A stretch of 64,000 bases of DNA from an uncultured Chloroflexia bacterium. GTDB lineage: Bacteria; Chloroflexota; Anaerolineae; JAAYZQ01. Location of the stretch: NCBI GenBank assembly GCA_963700285.1, contig CAVOXA010000004.1:1-64000 (forward strand). Reading direction: 5' to 3'. Every line of letters starts with the position of its first letter. Position 1 is the first letter of the stretch. Position numbers and translations under genes: made by a program. The notes below the pieces were generated by a model. It saw only the letters and a list, made by a program, of their open reading frames with translations. It searched no databases and was not told the origin of the DNA. Positions 26,718-63,483 of this stretch are shown here, piece by piece.

Positions 26718-28301
26718 GTGACCGAGTTCTTGACCATAGAGAGCATCGTCGTTGCTATGGTTCTGTTGACAACGCTGGTGGCCATTGGCGCCCGCCGCCT
26801 CCGGCTGCCTTACACCGTGAGCCTGGTGGTGATGGGCTTGTTGATCGCCCTCGTAACGTCCCTGGAGCTTGAGGCGACACCTGATCTGATCCTCGCCATC
26901 TTTGTCCCACCCCTGGTTTTTGAGGCCGCTTTCCACCTCGAGCTGAAGCAACTGCGCGAGAGCCTGGTTCCCATCCTGTTCCTGGCTGTACCCGGTGTGC
27001 TGTTGACCACAGCCATGGTCGGCGGCATGACGGCCCTGGGCGCGGGTGTGGCCATTGGCACAGCGGCCGTCTTTGGGGCGCTCATCGCTGCTACGGACCC
27101 GGTCGCTGTCGTCTCCCTGTTTCGCGCGCTGGGTGTGCCGCGGAAACTGGCCTTGACTGTCGAGGGCGAGAGCCTGTTCAACGACGGGACGGCCATTGTG
27201 ATCTTTCGCATTGCCCTGGTTGCGGTACTGACAGGAACCTTTGATCCGCTGACCGGGCTCCTTGACTTTGTCCGCGTTTCCCTGGGAGGGATTGCCGTCG
27301 GACTGGTATTGGGCTGGGTGACGGCCCAGCTCGTGGCCCGGCTCCACGATCGCCTCATCGTGACTTCGCTGACGACGATACTGGCTTTCGGTTCCTATCT
27401 CGCCGCCGAGCAGTTCCACGTCAGCGGGGTGCTGTCGGTGGTAATGGCCGGTCTATTGGTCGGCAACGTGGGCATGGCCGGGGCAGCGCCCTCGACCAAG
27501 CTCATGATCCTGAACCTCTGGGAGTACCTGGCCTTTTTGGCCAACTCGATGGTCTTTTTGCTCATCGGCTTGAGCATCGACCTGACCCTTCTCTGGGAGA
27601 ACCTGGACGCCCTTGTGGTGGCCGTGGTGGCGGTGGTCGGCAGCCGGGCCATCATCGTCTATGGTTTCTCCTGGCTGGCGCACCTGTGGCGCAGGCAAGC
27701 CTATTTTCCTCCCAATTGGCGACACGTACTGTTCTGGGGCGGCCTGCGTGGCGCCATCAGCCTGGCGCTGGCCCTGAGTTTGCCGGTGACGATGCCGGGC
27801 CGAAGCGAACTGCAGGCAATGGCCTTTGGCGTGGTGCTGTTCACCCTCTTGGCCCAGGGCACCACGATCCAATTCTTACTGGAGCGCCTTGGTCTGACCA
27901 AGCGGTCGCCTCACTGGGTTGCCCGCGAGAGGAGGCTGGGCCGGCTGTTCGCCACCCGGGCCGGCTTGCGCCGGCTGGAGGAGCTGCATCGGGAAGGGCT
28001 GCTTCCCGACGAGATGTGGGTTGGTCTGAAGAAGGGATACGACCACGACCGCAAGCAGATCCAACAAGAGATGAGTGAACTGTTCCGAGAGTACACTGAT
28101 CTGGAAGGTGAAATGCTGTTCCAGGCCCGGCGAGAGGCACTGCAGGCCGAACGGGGAGCGCTGTGGGAGGCTCACCAGCGAAGCCTGCTTTCAGGTCCCG
28201 TGTACGAGGAGCTGTCGGCCAAGATCGACTACCGGTTGGAGGCCCTCGATCTTATCTACGGCACAACGCATGAGCATCAATCTGACACGTACGAGGTGTG
28301 A
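26718..28301 (+). CDS. CPA1-family Na+/H+ antiporter
   Basis: ATDPVAV, EGESLFNDG and WGGLRGAISLALAL motifs; many TM helices. Confidence 0.93.
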   Translation: MTEFLTIESIVVAMVLLTTLVAIGARRLRLPYTVSLVVMGLLIALVTSLELEATPDLILAIFVPPLVFEAAFHLELKQLRESLVPILFLAVPGVLLTTAMVGGMTALGAGVAIGTAAVFGALIAATDPVAVVSLFRALGVPRKLALTVEGESLFNDGTAIVIFRIALVAVLTGTFDPLTGLLDFVRVSLGGIAVGLVLGWVTAQLVARLHDRLIVTSLTTILAFGSYLAAEQFHVSGVLSVVMAGLLVGNVGMAGAAPSTKLMILNLWEYLAFLANSMVFLLIGLSIDLTLLWENLDALVVAVVAVVGSRAIIVYGFSWLAHLWRRQAYFPPNWRHVLFWGGLRGAISLALALSLPVTMPGRSELQAMAFGVVLFTLLAQGTTIQFLLERLGLTKRSPHWVARERRLGRLFATRAGLRRLEELHREGLLPDEMWVGLKKGYDHDRKQIQQEMSELFREYTDLEGEMLFQARREALQAERGALWEAHQRSLLSGPVYEELSAKIDYRLEALDLIYGTTHEHQSDTYEV

Positions 28302-44266: not shown

Positions 44267-44629
44267 TTATTCGTGTTTCGTGCCGTCGGGCATGGTTGCG
44301 CCTTTCAGGGACGCGGCTTTGCTGAGCTGCTCGCTGGTCATATGGGCCCCGGATAGGTTGGCCGATGTCAGATCGGCCATGCCCAGGCTGGCGTCGCGCA
44401 AGTTGGCCGCAGTCAGGTTGGCCGCAGTCAGGTTGGCATCGCGCAAGTTGGCCCCGATCAAGTTTGCCCTGTCCAGATTGGCCCCTTCCAGATTGGCCAT
44501 GCTCAGGTTAATGTGATACAGGACGGCCCCGGGCAGCATGGCCCCACGTAGATCGGCCTGATACAGGTTGGCCCAGCTAAAGTCGCGTTCCCCTGCCTCA
44601 TACCGTGCGATCAGCTCTTGTGCATCCAA
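44267..44629 (-). CDS. Pentapeptide repeat protein
   Basis: Y.AGERDF followed by A(N/D)L.. pentapeptides, ending GATMPDG. Confidence 0.9.
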   Translation of the reverse strand: MDAQELIARYEAGERDFSWANLYQADLRGAMLPGAVLYHINLSMANLEGANLDRANLIGANLRDANLTAANLTAANLRDASLGMADLTSANLSGAHMTSEQLSKAASLKGATMPDGTKHE

Positions 44630-48688: not shown

Positions 48689-48694
48689 AGAAAC

Positions 48695-48810
48695 CTCCTC
48701 AGGTATTCTCCAGGCGACTGCACGCGAACAGGTCCCGCGCCAGTCGAACTCAGTCCAATTATATGCCCAGCCAGATGCTTTGTCAAATTAATATCACGTA
48801 AATAGTATCA
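48695..48810 (-). promoter_or_regulatory. Promoter plus hairpin leader (homologous to 62323-62432)
   Basis: TTGACA-17-TATAAT followed by a CGACTG..CAGTCG stem. Confidence 0.7.
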
Positions 48811-48934
48811 ACACCCTCGCAGGGGAAGACTGCGGAGGGAATCTACAGTTGCCTGCTCGACCAAGGAGCTTGTCACAGACGGCGGCCACAGGCCCAGGGC
48901 CAGCCCGCGGCTTGCTCTTCCTGCTAACCGCCAG

Positions 48935-49390
48935 CTAGTCTGGTACAACCTGCCAGAACTCAAGCTCCTCCCGCGCCCGCTCCATCGCCTCCTCGGGGAT
49001 GCGGATGTAGGTCCCCGAACCCTCCACCAGCACGGTTCCATCCGGCAATTGGATCTCGCCTTTCGCCTCGTAGGCCCGGGAGCGGCCGCGGGTCAGCTCG
49101 CCCACAACCGACAGATCCTGGTCCATGGGCACTGGTTTCCGGAATTTGATCTCCAGGCGGCCCGTCAGCGCGAACACGCCTTCGTGGGTCAGCACGCGGC
49201 CCATCGTCTCATCCAGTAGGGTGGAGATGATGCCGCCGTGCAGATGGCCGGGATAGCCCTGGTGTTCCGGTTTGGGCCGGAAGCGGGCGATGCAGCGCCC
49301 CTCGTCGTCGGTGTAGAACGCCAGGTGCAGGCCGATGGGGTTGTCGATGCCGCAGACGAAACACATGCGGGAGTTGGGTTGTTTTTCCAT
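48935..49390 (-). CDS. PaaI/hotdog-fold thioesterase, copy 1
   Basis: CFVCG..NPIGL..HQGYPG.LHGG.ISTLLDETMG; upstream TTGCCC-17-TATAAT promoter. Confidence 0.92.
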   Translation of the reverse strand: MEKQPNSRMCFVCGIDNPIGLHLAFYTDDEGRCIARFRPKPEHQGYPGHLHGGIISTLLDETMGRVLTHEGVFALTGRLEIKFRKPVPMDQDLSVVGELTRGRSRAYEAKGEIQLPDGTVLVEGSGTYIRIPEEAMERAREELEFWQVVPD

Positions 49391-49664: not shown

Positions 49665-50105
49665 ATGAGGATATACCTGGATACGTGTAGTTTGCAACGT
49701 CCTCTGGACAGCAAAGCTCAGACTCGGATCATTCTCGAGGCCGATGCCGTTCTGGGCATACTGGCCCTTTCTGAGGCAGGCACCATCGAGTTGATCTCGT
49801 CGGACGCCCTGCTCTATGAAACGTCGCGAACTCCGAACGTCACGCGACAGGAGTACGCGTACGAGACCTTGTCGAAGGCAACAGTGTTTGTCGAGTTGGA
49901 CGAGCAAGTTGAGCGGCGGGCCAGGGAACTAAATGCAGCTGGTATCGACCCCCTGGATGCGCTGCATTTGGCCTCGGCCGAAGCTGCTCGTGCGGACCTA
50001 TTCTGCACGTGTGATGACAGGCTGCTCAAGAGAGCTAGAGGCATTCCGAGGTTGCAGACAAGAGTGGTATCGCCACTGGAAGCCATAGAGGAGATCGAGC
50101 CATGA
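49665..50105 (+). CDS. PIN-domain (VapC-like) toxin
   Basis: IYLDTC..LLYE..LDALHLASAE..F.TCDD. Confidence 0.9.
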   Translation: MRIYLDTCSLQRPLDSKAQTRIILEADAVLGILALSEAGTIELISSDALLYETSRTPNVTRQEYAYETLSKATVFVELDEQVERRARELNAAGIDPLDALHLASAEAARADLFCTCDDRLLKRARGIPRLQTRVVSPLEAIEEIEP

Positions 50106-50323
50106 CCGTGGAAGTGAAACCATTGGCTGAGGTGACTCAAGAGGCAATTAGAGTGTTGATCCAGGAGCTTGGGCCGGTAGATACCGTGCGTTTTGTCAAT
50201 CAGTTCACCGTGGGCTACGGAAACTACACGGAGGAGCGCCGGCAATTGTTTGCAGGCTTGACTCTGGAAGAGATTGTTTCCGAGATCAAACGAGGAAAAG
50301 AGCGCACCGAATCACGCCGATAG
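50102..50323 (+). CDS. Probable antitoxin downstream of PIN
   Basis: ATGA overlap; LGPVDTVRF..G.GNYTEER small protein typical of this PIN pairing. Confidence 0.7.
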   Translation: MTVEVKPLAEVTQEAIRVLIQELGPVDTVRFVNQFTVGYGNYTEERRQLFAGLTLEEIVSEIKRGKERTESRR

Positions 50324-50391: not shown

Positions 50392-50469
50392 CTGGTGGTG
50401 CGGTAATACTCAGTCATAACGGCTCGGGCCGCTTGAGACGGCGCCGGCGGCCGGTCACCCCGGCCAGAC

Positions 50470-50634: not shown

Positions 50635-50663
50635 TTGACAACAGAACAAATGTTCGATACAAT
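50635..50663 (+). promoter_or_regulatory. SOS promoter with LexA box
   Basis: TTGACA-17-TACAAT with GAAC-AAAT-GTTC (50644-50655) in the spacer, upstream of the imu cassette. Confidence 0.9.
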
Positions 50664-50711: not shown

Positions 50712-51480
50712 GTGACCAGGAAAGGCAAGCGACGGCGCCAACTGGATATGGCCGTGGCGACCATCCACCGCCGCTTCGGCCCGCAGGCGTTGGTCAAGGG
50801 GAAACCGGCAACCGCCGCCACGCAGTGCCCCACATCCCCACCGGCTTTCCCGCCCTCGACCGCGCCCTGGGCATCGGCGGGCTGCCCAAAGGCAAGGTCT
50901 GCGAGCTGGTCGGGCCCGGCCACCTCGGGCAAGACGACGCTGGCCCTCAAGTTCCTGGCCCAGGCGCAGGCAGCCGGCGGGCAGGTGGCCTACGTGGACC
51001 AGGCCCTCTACTTCGATCCCGACTATGCCCACCGCTGCGGCGTGGACCTCTCTCGCCTGCTGGTCGGCACGCCCCACGACCTGCGGGAGGCCCTGGCCAT
51101 GACCGAGGCCCTGGTCCACAGCGGCGGCCTGGCTGCGCTGGTCTTTGACGCCCTCGACTTCTTGTGGACCGACGCGGAGGCCGCCCCGCTCCTGGCCGCG
51201 ACCCTCAACCGCCTGCCCGGTGCCCTGTCCCGCTCCGGCACGGTCCTGCTCGTCCTGCACGAATCGTCCGGCGTGGGCGACTGACCGGCGCTGTCGGCCC
51301 TGGCCCACCACGCCGCCGTGCGGCTGCAGGTCGTCCGCGAGCGCTGGCTGACGGCCACCGACGACATCCGGGGCTACGAGGCCCGGGTGGAGGTGCTCAA
51401 GAACCGGCTGGGTCCGTCCGGCCGCGCGGTGCTGCTGCAGCATCGAGTTCAACGGCACGGTGCGGGGCAACGGCCTGTAA
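50712..51480 (+). CDS. imuA: RecA-like ImuA protein (frameshifted)
   Basis: IPTGFPALDRALGIGGLPKG, GPATSGKTT, AYVD..GVDLSRLL; short, and first gene of the cassette. Confidence 0.8.
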
Positions 51481-51501
51481 GCAAAGGAGTGCTGTCCGGG
51501 G

Positions 51502-52719
51502 ATGTCGGTGCTCTACTGCACCATCCCGCATTTTGCCGCCGCCCTGGCCCGGCGGGACCATCCGGAGTTGGGCGGACGGGCCGCTGGTCCTGGTCGGGCC
51601 GGAGGAGCGGGTGTTCGGCGTCTCGGCCGAGGCGGCCGCCTGTGGCGTCGCCGCCGGGCATGACGGCCCGCGATGGCCGAGGTCCGCTGCCCCGAGGCGC
51701 GCCTGCTGGAGGCCGACCTGGCCCGCTGCCGGGCAGAGTTGGAGGCGCTGCTCCAGGTGCTGGAGCGGGCCAGCGACCGGGGTGGAGCCCCACGGCTGGG
51801 GAGCGGCCTACGTCGACCTGGGCGACCTGGTCCGGGGCCACGCCGACGCCGTGGCCCTCTGCCGGGAGATGGGGCGCGCGGTGCGCCGGGAGCTGGGCGA
51901 GGCCCTCCAGCCGGCGCTGGGCTGGGACAGCGGCAAGTTCACCGCCCAGGCCGCGGCCCGCCGGACGCCGCCCGGCCGCCTGCGGGCCGTGGATGCCGTC
52001 CGGGAGCGGGGCTTCCTCCAGCCGCTGCCGGTGACGCTGCTGCCCTTGGCGGGGGAGGCGGTGCAGCGGCTCGGCTTCCTGGGACTGCGCACGCTGGGCC
52101 AGTACGCGGCGCTGCCGCCGGCGGCGGTGTGGCAGCAGTTCGGGCGGGCCGGGAAGCTGGCCCACCGCTGCGCCCGGGGCGAGGACGACCGGCCCGTCAT
52201 CCCCCGCGGCAGGCGCCCCACCTGGCGGCCGAGGTCGAGTTCGAGACACCCTGGCCGAGCGGGAGCGGCTGATGGCCGCGCTGCGAGCGGCTGGTCTCGC
52301 CGCTGCTGGCCGAGCTGCGGGCGAGCCTGCAGGCCTGCGGCCAGGTGCGCCTGACGGTGCACTTTGACGACGGCAGCGCCCAGGAGCGGGAACGCGCCTT
52401 TCTGCTGCCCGTGGCGGACGAGGAGCGGGTGGTGCGGGCCCTGGACCGGCTTGCTGGACGGGATGCGCTGGCCGGCGCCGGCCGCCGGCCCTGGCCGTGA
52501 TCGCTGGCACAGATCCAGGAGGTCGTCGCCGAGCAGTTGACGCTGTTTCCCGCTCGAGGACGAGCGGGACGCCAAACTCCAGGAGGTGCAGCGCTACCTG
52601 GCGTCGCGTTTCGGGCCCTCCGGCCAGGTTGGCCGGCTGCGGCGGGCGGTGCTGGCCCAACCCGGCGCGCCCGCTGCCGGAGTGGCGGGTCGGTTGGCGG
52701 AGCGAGGAGCGAGCCGTGA
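51502..52719 (+). CDS. imuB: Y-family polymerase-like ImuB (frameshifted)
   Basis: S.EAAACGV, VRCPEA, AYVDL, FLQPLPV..LGLRTLGQ..QFG and QLTLF clamp motif. Confidence 0.8.
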
Positions 52720-52974
52720 CGCGCCTGTGGCCCGAGGGGGAGGCGGTGGAGACCTGGGGCGAGGAAGACACCCCGGCCGGGTTCTTCTGGCAGGGGACGG
52801 CGCCACCCCATCGCGGAGATCTGCAACCGCTGGCGGGTGCACACCCGCTGGTGGGAGCCGGACGAGGCCGTCTGGCGGGAGTATGTCAAGGTAACGACCG
52901 ACACCGGGCTGCTGTGCCTGCTCTACCGCGACCTGCTCGGCGGCGGCTGGTTCCTGGCTCGGGTCTATGATTGA
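52716..52974 (+). CDS. DUF6504-like small protein of the imu cassette
   Basis: PAGFFWQG..RWRVHTRWW..LYRD..WFLARVYD. Confidence 0.7.
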
Positions 52975-53000
52975 AGGGATGCAGCGCCTGGCTCGCGTCT

Positions 53001-56000
53001 ATGCCTGGAGTACGTCGAGCTGCACTGCCACAGCTATTTCTCCCTGCTCGACGGCGCCTCGTCGCCGGAGGCGCTGGTCGAGCGGGCGGCGGCGCTGGGC
53101 TACCCGGCGCTGGCCCTCACCGACCACGACGGGCTGTACGGCGCGGTGCGCTTCTGGCAGGCGGCCGAGGAGCGGGGCCTCAAGCCCATCATCGGCGCCG
53201 AGGTGACGCTGGACGGCGCCAGTCCACCGGGTCAACGCAACGGCCATCTGACCCTGCTGGCCGAGACCCAGCGCGGCTATGCCAACCTGTGCCGCCTGCT
53301 CAGCGCCGGGCAACTGGCCGGGCAGAAGGGGCAGCCCCGGCTGACGCTGGAGACGCTGGCCGGACACGCCGAGGGCCTGCATCTGCCTCTCCGGCTGCCG
53401 GCAGGGGGCGGTCCCCGCGGCGCTGCTGGCCAGAGACGAGGACGGAGCGCGCCGAGGCGGCAGGCCGCCTGCGCGACATCTTCGGCCCTGACCGCTTCTG
53501 GATCGAGCTCCAGCGCCACTACCTGCCCAGCGACGCCCGGCTGATCGCGGCGCTGGTCGCCCTGGCCCGCGAGCTGGGCGCTGGGCCTGGTGGCCACCAA
53601 CAACGTCCACTATGCCGAGCGGTCGGGCCAGCGGCTGCACGACGTCCTGACCTGCATCCGCCACCACACCACCCTGCCCGAGGCGCTGGCCGCGGGGCTG
53701 CTGCACCCCAACTCGGAGCAGTACCTCAAGTCGCCCGCGCGAGATGGCCGCCCTCTTTGCCGACCTGCCCCGAGGCGCTGCGCAACACCCTCCACATCGC
53801 CGAGCGGTGCGAGGTCAGCCTCGACTTCTCCGCCCAGCGGCTGCCCGCCTTTCCCGTGCCGGAGGGCCACACCCCGGACAGCTACCTGCGCCACCTGTGC
53901 GAGGCAGGGACTGCGCCGCCGGTTCGACCCGGTCACCGCCGCAGGCCCGGGCGCAACTGGCCCACGAGCTGGCCGTCATCGAGCGGCTGGGGCTGGCCGG
54001 CTACTTTCTCGTCGTCTGGGACATTGTCCGCTTTGCCCGCGAGCAGGGCATCCGCTGCCAGGGGCGGGGCTCGGCGGCCAACTCGCTGGTGGCCTACCTG
54101 CTGGGCATCACCCCGGTGGACCCGCTGCGCCACAACCTGCTCTTCGAGCGCTTCCTGAGCGAGGAGCGCGCACACCATGCCCGACATCGACGTCGATTTC
54201 GCCGCCGACCGCCGCGAGGAGGTGATCCAGTACGTCTACGAGCGCTACGGCGAGGAGCACGTGGGCATGGTCTGCAACGTGGTCACCTACCGCGCCCGCT
54301 CGGCGCTGCGCGACGTGGCCAAGGCGCTGGCCTTTCCGCCCGACGTGATCGACCGCGCGGCCAAGGCCCTCGACACCCGCTCGGCTGTCCAGGCCGCGGA
54401 CTCGCTGCCCGCGGTCCCCAGACCTCGAGGAGGCGATCGAGCTGCCCCCGCCGGACGGCGATGCTCCCTCCCCTGGCACCTGCTGTCCGATCTGCTGCGG
54501 CAGATGGACGGCGTGCCCCGCCACCTGTCCATCCACGTCGGCGGCATGATCATCACCGCCGCGCCCCTGGTCGAGGTCGTGCCCCTGGAGCGGGCGACGA
54601 TGCCCGGCCGCGTGGTCGTGCAGTGGGACAAGGACAGCGTCGAGGATGCCGGGCTGATCAAGATCGACCTGCTCTCGCCTGCGCACCCTGGGCGCGGTCG
54701 AGGAGGCGCTGGCGCCACATCCGGGCGCAGCGGGGGATCGAGCCTCGACCTGGACCGACCTGCCGCTGGACGACCCGGCGGTCTACGACCTGCTGCGGCG
54801 GGCCGACACGGTCGGCTGCTTCCAGGTGGAGAGCCGCGCCCAGGCGCAGATGCTGCCCAAGCTCCAGCCCGAGCTGCTTTGAGGACATTGTCGTCGGCGT
54901 GGCCCTCATCCGCCCGGCCCGATCCAGGGCGGCATGGTCCATCCCTACCTGCGCCGCCGCCAGGGGTTGGAGCCGGTGCACTATGCCCATCCCTCGCTGG
55001 AGCCGGTCGCTGGCCGAGACGCTGGGCGTGATCGTCTTCCAGGAGCAGGTGCTGCGGGTGGCCATGGCCGTCGCCGGGTTCACGCCCGGCCGAGGCCGAC
55101 CGGCTGCGCCGGGCCATGAGCCGCAGCCGCTCGGCAGCAGGCGATGGCCGCCCTGCGCGAGCGCTTTCTGGCCGGGGCGCGGGCCAACGGGCGTGGACGA
55201 GGCGACGGCGGAGGAGATCTGGCAGCAGTTGGCGGGCTTCGCCGGGTTTGGCTTCTGCAAGTCCCACGCCGCCGCCTTTGCCCTGGTGGCCTACCAGACG
55301 CTCTACCTCAAGGCCCACTACCCGGCCGAGTTCTACTGCGCCCTGCTCAACCACCAGCCGATGGGCTTTTACCCGCCGGAGGTGCTCGTCGGCGATGCCC
55401 GGCGCCACGGGGTGCCGGTCCTGCGGCCCGACGTCAATCGCAGCCAGGCGGCCTGCACTTTGGAGCGGGGAGATGACCGGCGATTGGCGCGTGCGCCTGG
55501 GCTTGCGCTACGTCCACGGCCTGGGCGAGGCGTGGCAGGAGCGGATCGTCGAGCGGCGGGGCGAGCGAGCCGTTCCGCGACCTGGCCGACTTTTGCCGGC
55601 GGACGCGCCTGCCCCGGCCGCTGGTGGAGAACCTGATCCGGGCCGGGGCGCTGGACGGCCTGGGGCCGGCGCGGCGGGACCTGCTGTGGGCGCTCGGCGG
55701 GCTGGCCTACCAGGAGGAGGGGCTGGACCTCGACGTGCCGGTGGTGGCGGTCGACGCTGCCGGCGCTGGGCGAGGCGGAGCGGATGGCCTGGGAGTACGA
55801 GCTGCTGGGCCTGGCGCCCGGCGACCAGGTGATGAGCCTCTACCGGGAGGCGCTGCGGGCGCAGGGGGTGCTGACCAGCGGCGAGCTGGCCGTCGCGGCG
55901 GGATGGGGAGCGGGTGCGGGTGGCCGGCTTGGCCGTCGTCCGCCAGCGCCCGCCGACGGCCAAGGGGCACCTGTTCGTCACCCTGGAGGACGAGGAGGGG

Positions 56001-56147
56001 CTGGTCAACCTGATCGTGCGGCCCGACGTGTACGAGCGGTACCGGGACGCGCTGCGCAACGCGCCGCTGCTGTGGGTCGAGGGGCGCCTGCAGCGGGAGG
56101 GGCAGGCGCTGAGCGTGCTGGTTTACCGGGCGGGGGCGGTGGGGTGA
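53001..56147 (+). CDS. dnaE2: Error-prone DNA polymerase III alpha DnaE2 (many frameshifts)
   Basis: [52 protein letters not shown] and [14 protein letters not shown] motifs. Confidence 0.92.
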
Positions 56148-56270
56148 GGGGGAGAGGGTGTGCATGACCTGCACCTCACACATCCTACTGCCAAGGAATT
56201 GATGACCGTCTTGACGATTCTGGGGAATCCTGCTACAGCGATTCAATCATTGTGTGGCAAAGGCAAGCTG

Positions 56271-56726
56271 TTAGTCCGGTACGACCTGCCAAAAGTCGAG
56301 TGCGGACTTGGCCTGTTCGACCATTTCGTCGGGGATGCGGACGTACACGCCGTTGCCTTCGACCAGGACTGTGCCGTCGGGCAGCCGGATCTCGCCCTTG
56401 GCCTCGTAGGTCCGAGAGCGACTACGAGTCAGTTCACCGATGACCGTCAACTCCTGGTCCAACGGTACCGGCTTACTGAATTTGATCTCCAGGCGACCGG
56501 TCATGGCCCAGACGTTGCGATGAGTCAAGACCCTGCCCATAGTCTCATCAAGCAGAGTGCTAATCAGACCGCCATGCAGCTGGCCGGGATAGCCCTGGTG
56601 TTCTGGCCGCGGCTGGAAGCGGCCGATGCATCGCCCCTCGTCGTCGGTGTAGAACTTGAGCTTCAGGCCTATGGGATTCTCGATGCCGCAGACGAAACAC
56701 ATGCGGGAGTTGGGTTGTTTTTCCAT
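56271..56726 (-). CDS. PaaI thioesterase, copy 2
   Basis: Paralog of 48935-49390 with the same promoter block. Confidence 0.92.
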   Translation of the reverse strand: MEKQPNSRMCFVCGIENPIGLKLKFYTDDEGRCIGRFQPRPEHQGYPGQLHGGLISTLLDETMGRVLTHRNVWAMTGRLEIKFSKPVPLDQELTVIGELTRSRSRTYEAKGEIRLPDGTVLVEGNGVYVRIPDEMVEQAKSALDFWQVVPD

Positions 56727-56871
56727 GATCTCTTCTCCTTGTGCCTGCCGGCATTATAGCATCGCCGCGGGGTTTGGGCAAACGTGACGCCCCGGCAATA
56801 TCCTTGACTTTGTTCTGCCTTTCTGCTATACTGTCTATCAGGTATACAGTTTGAAACGGGAGGTAGAGAGC

Positions 56872-57126
56872 ATGGACAGCACGACCGTTCAAATGGCAAA
56901 AAGGGGAGTGATCACAATTCCTCAACCGATCCGAGAGTCCTATGGAATGCAGCCTGGCGATACGTTTACACTCCTGGACCTGGGCGGTGTCCTGGTGCTG
57001 AGTCCGCGGCGTTCTGAGATCGACGTGCTCGCGGAGCGGATACGCACACAATGGACCGAGAAGGGGGACACGCTAGAGACGATGCTGCAGGCTCTGCGCG
57101 AGGAGCGGGATCGTCGTGGACGCTGA
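56872..57126 (+). CDS. AbrB/MazE-family antitoxin
   Basis: KRGVITIP..IRE.YGM.PGD; promoter TTGACT-17-TATACT at 56804-56832. Confidence 0.88.
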   Translation: MDSTTVQMAKRGVITIPQPIRESYGMQPGDTFTLLDLGGVLVLSPRRSEIDVLAERIRTQWTEKGDTLETMLQALREERDRRGR

Positions 57127-57619
57127 GCCGCGGGTGTTCCTGGATACCAGTGTGTTGTTCGCGGCCGTTTGGTCCGAGAGTGGTGGGTCACGCCTGATCC
57201 TCAAGCTGGGCGAGGCCGGAGCCATAGCGTTGTGGGTAGGCCCCACCGTTCTGAGGGAGGCCGAGGCGGTGCTGAGACGCAAATCGCCGGAAAGCCGCCC
57301 GCACATGGCCCTGCTACTGGATCGCGCACAGGTGCGGGTCGGGCCTGAGGCTGAAGACCAGGCCTTGGCGCTAACACGATCAGCCGTGGACTATGTGCCT
57401 GATGCCCAAGTGCTGGCCGAGGCTGTGGAGATAGGGGCGAACTACTTTGTTTCGCTTGACCAGAAGCATCTCGTAGGAAACCCACGGACAGAGCACTTGT
57501 TTCCGGTTGGGACCCCAGGGGACTTTCTGGGTTGGTATCGGCAGCATTTGATGGAAGGTGAGCCTGCTCAGCCAGGGGACCAAGGCGAACAGGCCGAAAT
57601 CGCTCGCTCTACACAGTAG
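57116..57619 (+). CDS. PIN-domain toxin
   Basis: VFLDTSVL..VLRE..PDAQVL..FVSLD.KHL. Confidence 0.88.
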   Translation: MDAEPRVFLDTSVLFAAVWSESGGSRLILKLGEAGAIALWVGPTVLREAEAVLRRKSPESRPHMALLLDRAQVRVGPEAEDQALALTRSAVDYVPDAQVLAEAVEIGANYFVSLDQKHLVGNPRTEHLFPVGTPGDFLGWYRQHLMEGEPAQPGDQGEQAEIARSTQ

Positions 57620-57625
57620 TTGGCC
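57558..57625 (+). other. attI-like recombination site A
   Basis: Homologous to 58559-58626 and 62464-62530; ends in GTTGGCC, complementary to GGCCAAC at 58158. Confidence 0.55.
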
Positions 57626-57650
57626 GGCGAGAAGGGGGAATACGAAGTAC

Positions 57651-58187
57651 ATGGATCCAAAGATCGTCATCAGGAGCGAGACCGGTGCCGATATAGGCGC
57701 GATAACCGAGGTGACCGTCGCCGCGTTCAACACCCTGGAGATCAGCAATCACACCGAGCAGTTCATCATCGAGGCACTACGCGCCGCCAAGGCCCTCTCG
57801 GTATCGCTCGTCGCAGAACTCGATGGCTGTGTAGTCGGTCATATTGCCTTCTCTCCTGTGACCATTTCAGACGGCACTCGGAACTGGTACGGCCTTGGAC
57901 CTGTGTCGGTGTTGCCGGCATACCAGCGGCAGGGCATTGGCAAAGCCCTGATAAGGGAAGGGCTGTCACGGCTGAGAGATATGAACGCTCAAGGATGTTG
58001 TCTCGTGGGACATCCGGATTACTACAGGAGATTCGGGTTCGAGAACACGTCGGGACTTGTGCACGAGGAAGTGCCCCAGGAGGTCTTTTTCGCTCTGTCT
58101 TTCGACGGGCATACTCCGCAGGGTGCTGTCACTTTCCACGAAGGATTTAGAACGGATGGCCAACCAGGGGGTACAGGCGACGCTTGA
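57651..58187 (+). CDS. GNAT N-acetyltransferase (YhbS-like), gene cassette
   Basis: IRSET..VVGHIAFSP..LGPVSVLP.YQRQGIG..GHPDYYRRFGF; followed by the left arm of an attC. Confidence 0.9.
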   Translation: MDPKIVIRSETGADIGAITEVTVAAFNTLEISNHTEQFIIEALRAAKALSVSLVAELDGCVVGHIAFSPVTISDGTRNWYGLGPVSVLPAYQRQGIGKALIREGLSRLRDMNAQGCCLVGHPDYYRRFGFENTSGLVHEEVPQEVFFALSFDGHTPQGAVTFHEGFRTDGQPGGTGDA

Positions 58188-58287
58188 CGCAACGGCCCTC
58201 GTCGCCGGTGTGGAACCTGAGCTTGAGGCCGGTGGGGTTCTCGATGCCGCAGACGAAACACATGTGCGAGTTGGGTTGTTTGTCCAT
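58187..58287 (-). pseudogene. PaaI thioesterase copy 3, 5' fragment
   Basis: MDKQPNSHMCFVCGIENPTGLKLRFHTGDEGRC then truncated; same promoter block upstream. Confidence 0.85.
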
Positions 58288-58431
58288 GAACGCTCCTCCT
58301 TGTGCCGCCTGCATTATAGCATCGAGGCGGGGTTTGGGCAAACCTCTCCGCTTGGCAACCCCATTCCCAATCGGCGTCGGGACACTTGCGTCCCGGGTCA
58401 TCGGTTCTCCTCCATGGGCTGACTCATCCGC

Positions 58432-58460
58432 TTGACGGAAAGAGATTTCGGGCGTACAAT
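58432..58460 (+). promoter_or_regulatory. Cassette-array (Pc-like) promoter
   Basis: TTGACG-17-TACAAT upstream of attI-like site B. Confidence 0.6.
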
Positions 58461-58558
58461 ATCGCCATCGTCCGACTGCACAGCGACCGGATTGCCCACC
58501 AAGGTCTCGGATACTAGGGCCGGAATTCGGCATAAGTCAATCCTTCGGGCATGTGATA

Positions 58559-58626
58559 CTGAGCTTTTTCAGTATATGAACCCAGGCAGATAGGCCGGAT
58601 TATTTCGGTCCACTCAATAGTTAGGC
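58559..58626 (+). other. attI-like recombination site B
   Basis: Ends in the GTTAGGC core, exactly complementary to GCCTAAC of the next attC; not itself palindromic. Confidence 0.6.
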
Positions 58627-58701
58627 GCTTTCATTCGCAAACCGTAACAGGTGAAATGGCGGCACCAGCGCTATTCCACACACAGGAAAGGGGAACATGC
58701 G

Positions 58702-59130
58702 ATGTCACTCGAAGCATTCAAAGCCAAGATCCGTTGGGCCGGTCAGGAGGCGTGGATGAAGGGTAACGTGGATGCCCTGCGAAAAGTCTACGCTGCCGAC
58801 TATCTCTGTCACAGACCCCCCTTCCCAGATGTCAGGGGAGTCGAGGAATCCATAGGATACATCGCCGCCACCAGGGGCGCCTACTCTGACATTCAGCTCG
58901 AGTACGAAGACATGATCTGCGAGGGGGATACGATTGCCTACCGCACCACCTGGCGGGCCAGGCACACCGGCCAATCGCCGACGATTCCCATTCCGCCCAC
59001 CGGTAAGGAGATCGTGTTGCAGTCGTGTTCCATCATCCACGTGGTGGACGGCAAGATCGCTGAGGAGTATGAGCTTTCGGATTACCTGGGCTTTCTGCAG
59101 CAGCTAGGCGTCGTCCCGCCACTGGGATAG
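58702..59130 (+). CDS. SnoaL-like ester cyclase, gene cassette
   Basis: AYSDI..EDMICEGD..HTG..IPPTGK..DGKIAE..D.LG.LQQLG. Confidence 0.88.
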   Translation: MSLEAFKAKIRWAGQEAWMKGNVDALRKVYAADYLCHRPPFPDVRGVEESIGYIAATRGAYSDIQLEYEDMICEGDTIAYRTTWRARHTGQSPTIPIPPTGKEIVLQSCSIIHVVDGKIAEEYELSDYLGFLQQLGVVPPLG

Positions 59131-59271
59131 AAAAGGGCGCTCCGCTCAAAAGCCCATCTGCCTATGGCGGCGAGTTGGAAAAAGGCCAAGGCTGGTTGCC
59201 GCCGCATCGCCTGCCGAACCTGAGCACGCAAGGCAGAGGGCCTATCAAGGCAAGAATTGAGGGCGCGTCGC

Positions 59272-59343
<72 letters not shown>

Positions 59344-59394
59344 GGCTTGATGACCGCTGAGTGACACCAGCAGATTCACAAAACAGGAGATTCC

Positions 59395-59985
59395 ATGAAA
59401 ACAATCATCGCAGAGTTCATAAGCCTCGACGGTGTCGTGCAAGCTCCCGGAGGAGCAACCGAAGACACGGACGGCGGATTCGCGCACGGCGGATGGTCGA
59501 TGAAGTATTTTGACCCTGAAGTTATGGGCGGCACTTATGACGAAATCGCGCGAAACAGCGACGCTCTTCTGCAGGGACGTCGCACCTATCAGGTCTCGGC
59601 CGAAGCGTGGCCCAGCCGCTCGGGCGATACGTTCACCGATTGGATCAATCGCGTGCAGAAGTACGTCGTGTCCAATACGCTCACCGAGAAGGACGCGACG
59701 TGGAGCCCGACCACGATCATTCGTGGCGACGACTTCGTCAGAACCGTGTCCGAACTACGCGCGCGGCCGGGGGGCTACATCTACGTGTATGGCAGCGCGA
59801 CGATGGTCCGGTCGTTGCTTGCGGCGGACTTGGTCGACGAGTTGTTGCTCACAATCGAGCCGATCATCCTCGGTGGGGGGAAAACGATCTTCACCCGTGA
59901 CGGAAAGGCGATCCCGTTCACGCTCGAGTCGACAGTCAAGGCCAGCACCGGCGCGCAGGTTTGCCGATATGTTCGTGCGCGGTAG
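59395..59985 (+). CDS. DHFR/RibD-C family protein, gene cassette
   Basis: FISLDGVVQAPGG..GRRTY..KYVVSNTL..PIILGGGK. Confidence 0.9.
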   Translation: MKTIIAEFISLDGVVQAPGGATEDTDGGFAHGGWSMKYFDPEVMGGTYDEIARNSDALLQGRRTYQVSAEAWPSRSGDTFTDWINRVQKYVVSNTLTEKDATWSPTTIIRGDDFVRTVSELRARPGGYIYVYGSATMVRSLLAADLVDELLLTIEPIILGGGKTIFTRDGKAIPFTLESTVKASTGAQVCRYVRAR

Positions 59986-60000
59986 CCCATATAGTGTGCC

Positions 60001-60064
60001 GGCTAACAACCGGTTGCAGCGGACGGTCCGCTGCGCGGCCCGCCGCCGAACCGGAGCGTTGGGC
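60001..60064 (+). mobile_element. Integron attC site
   Basis: GGCTAAC..CCGGTTGCAGCGG..CCGCCGAACCGG..GTTGGGC; inverse core is complementary to the GTTAGCC that opens this cassette. Confidence 0.9.
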
Positions 60065-60209
60065 GGCAGGCCAGGCCTACTGCATAAGGTTAGTATTACG
60101 GCGGGGTGGCGGGCGGCCCCGCACACAAGGGTTGCTCCAGAACGGTGGTGCGCGCGTGCCGGCCATCGCCGCCCTCCCGTAAGCCCCGGTGGGTCGGTCG
60201 CCGCGCCTA

Positions 60210-61470
60210 TGTTTGTCAAACTAGAAGTGACCCACTTGATAACCGAAAAATGTACCACCTGACGCCACTCAACCTACTTTGACAGTTGGACGTGACGATC
60301 AGCGAGCCGCGCAGGTAGCGCTGGCTGATGAAGGAGAAGAGCATCTGCGCCCCCCGCTGGCTGAACGGCACAAAGCCCACCTCGTCGACGATGATCTGGT
60401 CCTGCTTCATGAGCCACGACTCCAGCTTGCTGAGACGATGGGTTTCCTGGGCCTCAAGCAGGTCGTTGATCAACCCGGCAGCGGTATAGAAGCGCACGCG
60501 GCGCCCCTGTTCACAGGCCATGAGCCCCAGGGCGATGGCCACGTGCGTCTTTCCCGTGCCGATGGCGCCGATCATGGCGATGTTCTCCCGGTGCTCCAGG
60601 TACTCACCGCGGGCCAGGGCCAGGACCTTGCTCTGGCTCAGACCCGGAATGGCCTGGAACTCGAACTCCTCCAGCGTTCGCAGCACCGGAAAGCGCGCCT
60701 CCAGTACGCGCCGCTTGCGGCGGTTCACGTCCCGCTAGCTGATTCCGTGCTCCAGCAAAGCCAGCCGGCACTCCTCGTACGGCTGCCTGCTCTGGGCTGC
60801 CTCTTGGGCGAACTTGCGGTAGTTGGCCACCGCGGTCGGCAGGCGCAGCTGGCGCAGGACGATGGGCAAGCGAATGTCAACGCTCATCACTCACCTCCTG
60901 CCTGGCCCGCCAACAGGCGGTCGAATTGGCGCAGTTCGGGCCAGGCCACCTGGCCCTCGTTCAGGTGCGGCCACTGGGTCAAATCCAGGGCACCTGCCGG
61001 TTGGGCAGGCTCTGTCAGGCACAGAATGAGCTGCTTGGCGCCGTCAGCCGAGAAGCAGTGACCGGTCAGGGCTTGCTCCAGAGCCTGGGCGATGAGCGCC
61101 TCGGGATGGACCTCGTGCAGGCGCAGGACGCGCACGAACTCCTTGGTCGCCAGGGACGTCGAGAGATGCTCCCGCAGCGCCGCCAGATAGCGGTTGTAGA
61201 CCTCGTGCCAGCATTTCTGCCACTCCAGGATGGGCTTAGCCTGCTCCCAGGCGCCCGGCCGCTGCTCCAGGACGGTCAGATAGTGCATGGCGTTCAGGAT
61301 GTCCTGTTCGCGTCCATAGCAGCGCGGGTGCACGGCCAGCGTCTTGCGGCCGTTGCCGATCTCCACTCGGTGGACAAAGGCCCGCAGCCAGAGGGCCTCG
61401 TGTGCATGGTCCGCAGGCACCGAGTAGCGATTGGTCTGGAAACGGACCAGGCCAACGTCGTCAGGCTGGA
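60210..61470 (-). mobile_element. IS21-family remnant: istA 3' part (60887-~61470), truncated istB (~60285-60887) and a probable terminal repeat
   Basis: NRYSVP..HPRCY..HYL..LEQRPGA IstA motifs; GAIGTGKTH, IVDEVGF and LIVTSN IstB motifs; TGTTTGTCAAACTAGAAGTGACCCAC end at 60210. Confidence 0.85.
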
Positions 61471-61475
61471 CAGCT

Positions 61476-62114
61476 GGCTGGCCTCTTCCCTCCCCGCGCT
61501 TGAGCGAGCCCTGGCCTATGTTCAAGACGATGAGAAGCATTGGGATGCGAAGCACTCTCTGGTGAAGCGTCAGCACAGTCGGGGGCGAGCTCTGCCGTGC
61601 CGCTTTCTGGTTCGGTCGCGAGTCCTATGGCACCGAACTGCTGCGCCAGTATGCCCGGCATTTGAAGCAGAGCGGCGGCGTGCACGTGTGGTATTGGCCA
61701 AATGGCGAACCGGGGTTTACAACTACGAATGAAGTTCCGTACGCGTCCTGGGGCATGGCGGAGTGGTTGAGTGCCGCCATTGAGGGGTTGGCTGGTGTTC
61801 ACGACGATTCCGGGCAGTTGCGCAACGTCACCGTCTCACCACGAGGGGCAGCAGCCGGCGTGAGCAGCGTGCATGTGATCGTCCGCTACGCGCCCTCGAA
61901 GGCTTACTGCGCTTACCTGATGCAAATTGATGAGGAGACAGAAACCATTCGCCTATTCTGTACAGGTTCAGGGAAGCAGGTGGCTGCAGGAATCCTCCTT
62001 CCCGACCCGTGGGTTCCCGTGGCGGTCATCCAGGGGGGGCTCCTTGACGCATACCACGACAATCGAGGACGCGTCGCGCTACGTGCCCTTTGCTCTGCCC
62101 ATTCCGGATGTTGA
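61476..62114 (+). pseudogene. Fragment of a probable (alpha/alpha)6 glycoside hydrolase
   Basis: No start, frame change near 61590; WGMAEWLSAAIEGLAGV.D..VTVSPR pattern. Confidence 0.4.
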
Positions 62115-62322
62115 CCCGGTTGTGATTCAATGCCGAAACGCCAACTCGGCAGCAGCATGAACGGAGAGTTCTGGCCAACAAGCCGGGTGCACGGTACCCA
62201 CTGGGGCGCGCGGACGCACCCCAGCGGTCCCGTGACCCGCGACGTTGGGCATCACGCATTGGCTTTGGACAAACCCCCCTGATGGCAGCTCGGATGGGTC
62301 CTTGAACATTGGAGAACCTTTT

Positions 62323-62432
62323 TCATACTATTTACATGATATTAACTTGACAAAGCATCTGGCAGGGTGTATAGTGTGAGCAGCTTTGACTGGCGCCGGA
62401 TCTGTTCACATGCAGTCGCCTGGAGAAAGTCC
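62323..62432 (+). promoter_or_regulatory. Promoter plus leader homologous to 48695-48810
   Basis: TTGACA-17-TATAGT; shares ATACTATTTAC..TTGACAAAGCATCTGGC..GACTGGCGC..TGCAGTCGCCTGGAGAA. Confidence 0.7.
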
Positions 62433-62463
62433 TGGAAGTGATACTCTCCGCGAAAAGTCTATA

Positions 62464-62530
62464 CCGAACCTGCTCACTCCAGGGACCCGGTAGACGGGCC
62501 AAAGTCGTTCGGTCTACTCAATTCTTGGGC
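62464..62530 (+). other. attI-like recombination site C (degenerate core CTTGGGC)
   Basis: Aligns to sites A and B with one gap. Confidence 0.5.
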
Positions 62531-62592
62531 TGCCTGGCGGGCAGCTTTGGCGAGCTCCGGTCAAAGACCAATTCTTACACCCGAGGTGCCCG

Positions 62593-63009
62593 TTGCAGGA
62601 CGAGGATGCGGTTCGAGAGCTTGAGGAGTTGTACGACGAATCCTGGAATCGCGGGGACGTCGATGCGCTCCTCTATTGCCTGACTGATGATGCACTCATT
62701 GTGGATCCGCTTGGCAGGGTCGCACGAGGTCACGACGAGATACGCCATCTGCTGGCCCCATTGATGGGCCCGGCTGGGGGTGATTCCACACACAAGTCCG
62801 AGCTCGTCCGCGTCGAGTTCGTCACACCCGACATCGCCCTGGTCGATGGACGTGCGCATATCGAGGTTCCAGTGCTGGGAGAGGGGAACGCTCCGTCGGA
62901 TCGCTTCCACCGATTCACCGATATGGTCGTAAGGCGAGAAGGCCAGTGGAAGATCGCCCACATCCGCGCGTGCCCGCTAGAGACAGACGGGTCAAGAGGA
63001 CCGGATTGA
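62593..63009 (+). CDS. SgcJ/EcaC-like NTF2-fold protein, gene cassette
   Basis: WNRGDVDAL..TDDA..G.VARG..I..PDIALV..GQWKIAH; start uncertain. Confidence 0.8.
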   Translation: MQDEDAVRELEELYDESWNRGDVDALLYCLTDDALIVDPLGRVARGHDEIRHLLAPLMGPAGGDSTHKSELVRVEFVTPDIALVDGRAHIEVPVLGEGNAPSDRFHRFTDMVVRREGQWKIAHIRACPLETDGSRGPD

Positions 63010-63021
63010 GATCGCAAAGCG

Positions 63022-63141
63022 GTCCAACAACTTGCTGAAGCCGACTCGGCTGGCAGGCGAAAACGCAGTGGCGCCTGCCCTCCCGACCTGGCCTAGAACG
63101 AAGGAAGGACGCCCGAGCCGCCGAGCTCAAGGCCGCTAGGC
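63022..63141 (+). mobile_element. Integron attC site (long, degenerate core)
   Basis: GTCCAAC..CTTGCTGAAGCCGACTCGG..CCGAGCCGCCGAGCTCAAG..GCTAGGC. Confidence 0.7.
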
Positions 63142-63219
63142 GGTGCATATGATTGCAGTGCGGGTCCGCACTCGAACTGCGCCGAGGTTTCCAACCCAAT
63201 TCACAATGAGCAGGTTTCC

Positions 63220-63483
63220 ATGAGCACAAAAAACGACACGCCAAAGTCCCCCAAGAGCACCACAGCGAGTGGCAAGAAGCCTGAGGGGTTCACGGACGAG
63301 GAACGAGCGGCGATGAAGGAGCGCGCCAAAGAGCTGAAGGCGGAAGCGCGCGCGGAGAAGAACAGGGCGGTGGGGTTTGAAGCGGAGAGCACGAATCCCC
63401 TTGAAATGCAGCGCAGCGGCTGGCAGGCCATCTTGGACAATTTCAAAGAATACGTGGAGGGAGAGCACCATGACAAAGTTTAA
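63220..63483 (+). pseudogene. DUF1801 N-terminus fused to an SRPBCC/AHSA1 C-terminus
   Basis: [22 protein letters not shown] joined to FEAESTNPLEMQRSGWQAILDNFKEYVE. Confidence 0.7.

Follow-up and report, generated by a model that had tools for sequence, protein, structure and literature searches.

Tandem attI sites without an intact integrase gene beside thioesterase repeats in an uncultured Anaerolineae genome

The attI differs from one integron class to the next, each class having one of its own, and PMC3146285 lists 30 environmental families. Putative archaeal attIs have been described beside intI (10.1101/2022.02.06.479319), a phage study tested attCs against attI1 (PMC9892861), and both intI pseudogenes and several intI genes per genome are common (PMC2426708). 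According to two surveys, most integrons have no known attI, and 95% of the attC clusters that have no integron-integrase (CALINs) have no recognizable intI pseudogene nearby (PMC4889954; 10.1101/2022.09.11.507474); IntegronFinder seeks only the attI of classes 1-3 (PMC4889954). Since the attI cannot be searched for in most integrons, the origin of CALINs has stayed open between loss of intI and insertion at random genomic sites. Here we analyze positions 1-64,000 of contig CAVOXA010000004.1 (assembly GCA_963700285.1), from an uncultured member of the Anaerolineae (Chloroflexota; labeled G000). In this stretch of 64,000 nucleotides, hereafter the window, an original prediction made from the letters alone had pointed out an element of about 68 bp at three places (A, B, and C) and read it as attI.

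With the attI of chromosomal integrons, such as attI1, the element shares a divergent intI, an upstream cassette promoter (Pc), a degenerate L box, a 5-nt spacer, a GTTRRRY core, and a sequence specific to its class (PMC3146285). Unlike those sites, it is multicopy, mostly orphan, and of an apparently new sequence family. CALINs and their single-attC counterparts (SALINs) likewise hold attCs without a nearby integrase, with intI loss as one proposed origin (PMC4889954; 10.1101/2022.09.11.507474), whereas here attI and often Pc persist and can be modeled, and the relics are stubs of 15-60 nt that the pseudogene searches of such surveys would likely miss. Inactivated Xanthomonas integrons show the same frequent deletion or truncation of intI, which freezes arrays at a fixed locus; there the single platform lies at ilvD, whereas here several occur per genome, both in tandem and dispersed (10.1101/2025.06.18.660453). 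With cis-mobilizable elements (CIMEs) and the serine-recombinase type of integrative and mobilizable elements, the locus shares a pile-up of decayed units with att remnants at one attB and an intragenic target (PMC5704250). It differs in its cargo of mini-integrons and toxin-antitoxin pairs, in putatively mobile units of 0.3-2 kb that carry thioesterase copies, and in that the recombinase is not in the G000 assembly.

All the parts are of known kinds. We consider it probable, at about 0.68, that separate integron-bearing units accumulated at an insertion hotspot in a thioesterase gene and then decayed by deletion, leaving tandem orphan attIs. No description appears to exist of the attI sequence family, of how prevalent orphan platforms are, or of the thioesterase link: the literature searched, which did not cover subscription papers, contained no paper on this attI family or on stacked orphan attI. 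The suggestion of a possibly undescribed family stands, although it may match one of the published attI-family alignments. An attI that can be modeled offers a handle on how CALINs arise. It also provides a test set for service in trans, in the form of an intact IntI and orphan attIs of the same class, together with a putative target site of a thioesterase-directed serine recombinase.

The attI family and its integrase

The repeat was borne out at all three places, on the forward strand. A (57558-57625) and B (58559-58626) are identical at 43 of 68 positions without gaps, and the global alignment scores were 43 for A-B, 43 for A-C, and 42 for B-C. In 2000 dinucleotide shuffles per pair the means were 18-19 and the maxima 30, 34, and 29. 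In the final delimitation attI-B spans 58556-58626 and attI-C 62459-62530. Outside this trio, the G000 genome holds three further copies (on contig C4 at 69.6 kb, on C6, and on C15) and one weak copy.

Bottom-strand folding of A, B, and C was no better than that of shuffles (z = -0.73, -0.05, and -0.64), while the attCs at 59272, 60001, and 62173 folded better than shuffles (z = -3.5, -2.8, and -4.6). The three sites lack the bottom-strand hairpin from an imperfect inverted repeat that marks an attC. The core of A (GTTGGCC, 57619-57625) matches the inverse core at 58158, and that of B (GTTAGGC, 58620-58626) the inverse core at 59272; the cassette after the first B cassette repeats this pairing at 59337 and 60001. 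The complementarity claimed earlier thus holds at B, at its second cassette, and at the core of A, but the complete attC expected behind A is absent, only its left half (58158-58183) remaining. Site C is degenerate, as had been said: its core is mutated to CTTGGGC (62524-62530, first G changed) with one more mismatch against the inverse core at 63022, and the attC that follows (63022-63141) is decayed (z = -0.6).

The element also stands beside intI and before cassettes elsewhere, which supports the three sites as homologous attIs of one family. In G001, a genome of the same genus, leader and element adjoin a divergent intI, immediately ahead of it (E = 4e-38), and a full-length intI stands upstream at five other loci in all, with four open frames and one frameshifted. 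Three of the five proteins, scanned with TIGR02249, scored 481-487 bits (cut-off 265). The IntI of this class is 92% identical across three families, and its start codon lies 196-221 nt before the site end at the four loci measured. Across 14 arrays with a detectable first attC, which include B and a further site (D) of G000, the core equaled the inverse core of the first attC at all 6 compared positions in 10; the null mean was 2.6 arrays, and 0 of 20000 permutations reached the observed 10.

Among 89 sites, the majority base has a frequency of 0.74-0.96 at positions -17 to -1 and of 0.26-0.37 from +10 on. The simple site has the majority sequence GTCTACT at -12 to -6, a 5-nt spacer, and GTTAGGC at 0 to +6. 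The metagenome sites had been chosen by a sequence pattern, so conservation within that pattern is circular. The family thus combines an adjacent divergent intI, a GTTRRRY core with a degenerate L box, and cassettes that begin at G|TT; as for a Pc-type promoter of its own, a consensus match is predicted at B, another promoter stands at C, and none is found at A. Upstream, at about -64 to -11, lie two conserved dyads of the CYGAR-N4-TTCRG type with 4-nt centers, 37 nt apart, where attI1 has DR1/DR2; their patterns are matched by 39 and 67 of the 89 sites, and their right halves resemble the core. A reading of the dyads as LexA boxes was rejected, their spacing not being that of LexA and GAAC-N4-GTTC occurring in 0 of 89 sites. 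From conservation that ends just past the core, adjacency to intI, core complementarity, and the missing attC fold, we conclude that the element is, as far as sequence comparison can tell, the attI belonging to a single integron class in Chloroflexota of the Anaerolineae type.

For prevalence, 23 genomes of the family were compared, an order-level search giving the identical 23. The site model gave 24 matches in 12 of the 22 other family genomes and, over the class, matches in 7 of 150 genomes, one of these in the same family. The sequence pattern retrieved 69 metagenome stretches and 10 genome contigs, six titled Anaerolineae or subgroups, three Chloroflexia, and one Phycisphaerae. Once exact duplicates were removed, 99 sites were left.

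Separate platforms and the loss of intI

The nearest neighbors of A, B, and C are foreign sites, at 46, 55, and 46 of 61, while among themselves the three reach only 34-39. This agrees with the earlier view of independent platforms and argues against copies that stem from a single resident integron, duplicated locally in tandem and then diverging. That explanation could draw on the layout of thioesterase and attI repeated within a 15-kb stretch, but the leaders of B and C differ, each being common to other genomes, and the cassettes are unrelated and single-copy in G000. We regard duplication as already largely refuted and extremely improbable.

Site B is, on sequence comparison, the wreck of a once complete integron. 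The absence of an integrase, stated in the original prediction, is correct for an intact gene; adjoining B, however, is an intI relic of 64 nt (58352-58415, reverse strand), in which the start codons run straight into 52 nt from the IntI-specific region. This stretch corresponds to nt 614-665 of intact intI, with 74-75% identity, about 600 nt having been deleted between. The relic start codon is 212 nt from attI-B. Between them consensus matches predict a Pc (TTGACG-17-TACAAT, 58432-58460, forward strand), conserved in the leader of intact integrons, and a PintI (TTGACT-18-TAGTAT, 58511-58540, reverse strand). The same joining of the start to the insertion region is found in G004, and joins of the start to the C terminus occur at four other loci (L044, L057, L062, and L105).

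A full intI is the exception. The upstream census started from 65 foreign sites that scored E < 1e-4 and had 1300 nt or more of upstream sequence; 4 near-duplicates (one a second locus in G130) were dropped, which left 61, a sample skewed by the pattern used for searching and by the shortness of contigs. Full intI was present at five, a relic at 19, only a Pc leader at 15, a C-type leader at five, and nothing at 17. With full intI missing at 56 of 61 platforms sampled in this lineage, many of them keeping only a tiny stub or a promoter, the census argues for wholesale intI deletion as a main route to CALINs. No intact IntI was found in the G000 assembly (7.05 Mb in 22 contigs, with a completeness of 89% and some 11% of the genome missing), where the best TIGR02249 match, at 69 bits, is a Xer-type gene. 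Its IntI remnants are the one at B and a 55-residue fragment on C6 (27.2 kb). The window thus holds no complete integron, there being no intact intI in cis; with three well-folded attCs (59272, 60001, and 62173) it qualifies, by our own attC heuristic, as a CALIN.

Several remnants elsewhere belong beside these. On C6 the IntI N-terminal relic (27181-27385) is cut by an apparent insertion sequence (IS) end, and attCs lie at 23836 and 24857 of the same contig. Further places in G000 (C10:1612157, C7:78291, C1:1124328, C5:155853, C22:306561, and C6:31016) match the Pc/intI leader weakly and show no clear attI; they are possibly older integron remnants. Two full-length intI genes stand in tandem at L006/L010 (G010:C73), where this attI family was not detected nearby, the contig ends being close.

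Platform A has lost both leader and intI. Upstream of it, a promoter-like site, an AbrB/MazE antitoxin gene (56872-57126), and a PIN toxin gene (57116-57619) occupy 56804-57619 on the forward strand, as assigned by Pfam and alignment, and the PIN frame reads straight into attI-A. Positions 56265 to 57545 of the window share 84.5% identity with G012:C265. There PIN reaches its normal end, and behind it come an arm sequence (see below), a thioesterase 5' part, a leader, and an attI; a deletion took PIN's own last codons in the window. The GNAT cassette behind A (57620-58183, forward strand; gene 57651-58187) keeps only the left half of its attC. The homologous cassette in G003 has a longer attC, and the window breaks into a thioesterase fragment at 58184, so that the attC was halved by deletion into this fragment. 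A short contig from public runs spans this junction (57972-58214). Such contigs match pieces of the window at 0-3 differences and may share its own source or campaign. Joints in public-run contigs at 85% likeness come from other organisms and were not used.

Site C has a different leader (62295-62454, forward strand), with a promoter-like site at 62347-62375 (11 of 12 consensus matches) and no trace of intI. Leaders of this C type are common to five attI-bearing copies in G011 and G012, one of them partial. No copy examined showed an intI trace at a C-type platform, and BLAST found no C-type leader beside intact intI in 401 genomes of the class or 23 of the family. The type also occurs without attI in G020, in G013, and in the window, where a second copy of promoter and leader (48694-48813, reverse strand) runs straight into a DUF1801 gene.

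These platforms bear on the alternative that the sites are maintained as integrase-free landing pads that continue to receive cassettes in trans, through an IntI located at another place in the cell or arriving on passing mobile DNA. The six C-type platforms with attI (C itself, four in G012, and one in G011) lack any intI trace and start with four different cassettes, each at the core. The start of a DUF1801-type cassette directly follows the attI core in G012; in the window (63136-63483, forward strand) it follows the attC of an extra DUF4440/SnoaL cassette (62525-63141, forward strand; gene 62593-63009, with the decayed attC at its end), in register at the core. Platform A is syntenic with locus L031 of G012 but has a different first cassette, B retains an intact core and two well-folded attCs, and the 92% identity of IntI across families implies that IntI moves around. 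Standard assays, moreover, provide IntI1 from one plasmid and attI1 from another (10.1101/2022.02.06.479319). On these comparisons it is plausible that the C subfamily exchanged cassettes in the past with no integrase in cis, and B is plausibly a substrate for any incoming IntI. Turnover is not proven, however, since a deletion between the core-like 7-mers of attI and attC gives a junction identical to that of excision, and the C-type leaders without attI point to domestication. Service in trans at present, as originally proposed, is unsupported: the assembly has no intact IntI, the attC of A is halved, and the core and attC of C are decayed. On balance we consider maintained landing pads unlikely.

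Probable accumulation at a thioesterase gene

The preferred reading, accumulation of separate units at a hotspot, rests on thioesterase DNA that lies upstream of each site on the opposite strand. Before A stands T2 (56271-56781), a full thioesterase gene with a promoter-like site at 56781-56753; before B stands T3 (58184-58341), which keeps codons 1-36 and a promoter-like site at 58341-58313; and before C stands T4 (62249-62274), a promoter-region remnant that aligned with five foreign copies and was missed by the promoter hidden Markov model. A further full gene of the 4HBT family, T1 (48936-49390), is 79% identical to T2 in amino acids; all four are on the reverse strand. These thioesterase repeats, which would explain the tandem layout, had gone unnoticed in the original prediction. 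Beyond the window, C4:64821-69682 holds a fifth thioesterase-promoter-like site, a large frameshifted open reading frame (ORF) region, and then the fourth attI copy, without leader.

A full thioesterase gene is present in 19 of 23 family genomes, and extra 5' fragments occur in G011, G012, G015, G016, and G022. In the relatives such fragments break off at a single codon, beyond which comes the same conserved arm, and 12 distinct junctions of this kind were seen (arm matches were counted only at thioesterase loci and with 0-1 mismatch, since 2 mismatches gave many chance-looking matches). In G022, a large serine recombinase (Resolvase, Recombinase, and zinc ribbon domains) runs into the matching thioesterase 3' half, and its junction carries a 13/14 inverted match to the arm. 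The split target gene and inverted-repeat arms expected of a serine-recombinase element or CIME are seen in the relatives as 12 left junctions and one right one, and in the window only as remnants. At locus L103 an attC, a cassette, an attI, a leader, and an intI stub lie between two thioesterase/arm junctions, and thioesterase traces accompany four of four foreign tandem attI pairs in the family.

Serine-recombinase-type elements would have delivered a new thioesterase copy as a replacement, along with the integron DNA next to it; every newcomer would have inserted into the latest copy, and deletions would then have erased integrases, arms, and attC halves. IntI would have placed cassettes at G|TT mostly while intI was intact, with some exchange in the C subfamily likely after loss of the cis integrase. 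At present most of what the sites do would be to act as static platforms for expression, served by predicted promoters: the Pc at B, a strong promoter at C, and the toxin-antitoxin promoter at A.

The same findings admit a two-recombinase system with many slots, in which the serine recombinase stacks integrase-free platforms of promoter, attI, and cassettes in the thioesterase gene and a shared mobile IntI reloads them in trans; we hold this to be doubtful. It is also conceivable that IntI mobilized circles of attI and first cassette through secondary sites into arrays, so that platforms traveled as cassettes. C follows an attC (end 62250) almost directly, half attCs adjoin platforms in the window and at L034 and L035, and IntI insertion outside att sites is documented (10.1101/2022.09.11.507474). 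Behind the 62250 attC, however, lies the remnant of the thioesterase promoter, which is also present in foreign copies that lack an attC at this position, and the left boundaries of platforms are variable and carry thioesterase DNA rather than a GTT junction, which makes this route very unlikely.

Several points weigh against accumulation of integrons at the thioesterase hotspot. The recombinase-thioesterase junction is a single case, no serine recombinase homologue was found in the G000 assembly, and no arm lies between A, B, and C, the window having just a weak 23-nt remnant (50396-50418, reverse strand; E = 0.033 genome-wide) of the arm found in relatives behind truncated thioesterase 5' ends. 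By our reading, 17 of 30 family sites show no thioesterase link, including sites D and E of G000 and the G001 integron, and a tandem attI pair in G072 has no thioesterase trace, so that the sites also spread in other ways. In five genomes the C-type promoter core stands before unrelated genes as well; C therefore need not descend from a complete integron in place, and its leader may have been borrowed as a promoter. The tree built from the 66-column site gave no resolved branching, and the intI relic calls depend on lenient tblastn cut-offs close to the site.

The recombinase locus and a related repeat deserve description of their own. At L188:5036-6751 (G022:C3) the 3' end of the recombinase gene overlaps the thioesterase 3' half, a ParM-like actin gene lies nearby, and the left junction, some 120 kb away, leads on to a full copy of the thioesterase gene; recombinase and thioesterase site form a candidate new integrase/attB pair. 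In G015 (L180, L185, and L186) eight repeats of thioesterase 5' fragment with arm, or of arm, occur, some of them spaced by 0.9-1.7 kb and enclosing one cargo gene. At the end of the arm stands a recurring GTATGA-like word, possibly a -10 box, and the whole looks like a second cassette-like stacking system.

Other features of the window

Behind attI-B, on the forward strand, a SnoaL-like cassette (58621-59343; gene 58702-59130) ends in an intact attC at 59272-59343, and a RibD_C (DHFR-like) cassette (59338-60064; gene 59395-59985) has its attC at 60001-60064, both assigned by Pfam, the attC heuristic, and folding. The heuristic is reliable only at scores of about 17.5 or more, misses decayed attCs, and gave 2 null matches at 17 or above per 88 kb. 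Within the B array a decayed IS21-type element (60214-61576, reverse strand, right boundary approximate) retains istB and istA C-terminal pieces. The next cassette (61662-62250, forward strand) has an ORF of no Pfam family (61662-62114) and an intact attC at 62173-62250.

The AT-rich motif that covers the -35 box in the C-type leader is found again ahead of unrelated genes (L225, L231, L232, L234, and L236) and is likely a regulator's operator; one of the downstream translations is reminiscent of superoxide dismutase. An Rfam scan of 44-64 kb gave just two matches, both at chance level. None of the public sequencing runs contained more than 0.12 of the words searched, and no RNA run was listed. 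Behind T1, a second toxin-antitoxin-like pair (PIN and a small ORF, 49665-50323) precedes the arm remnant. Between T1 and T2 lies a mutagenesis cluster (50712-56147), frameshifted in the assembly and with a RecA-like Pfam match, which beyond that match we take, from its translations, to be of the imuA-imuB-dnaE2 type; a LexA-type box, GAAC-N4-GTTC, stands before imuA at 50644-50655. Farther upstream, 15-nt periodic repeats at 44345-44584 likely belong to a pentapeptide-repeat gene.

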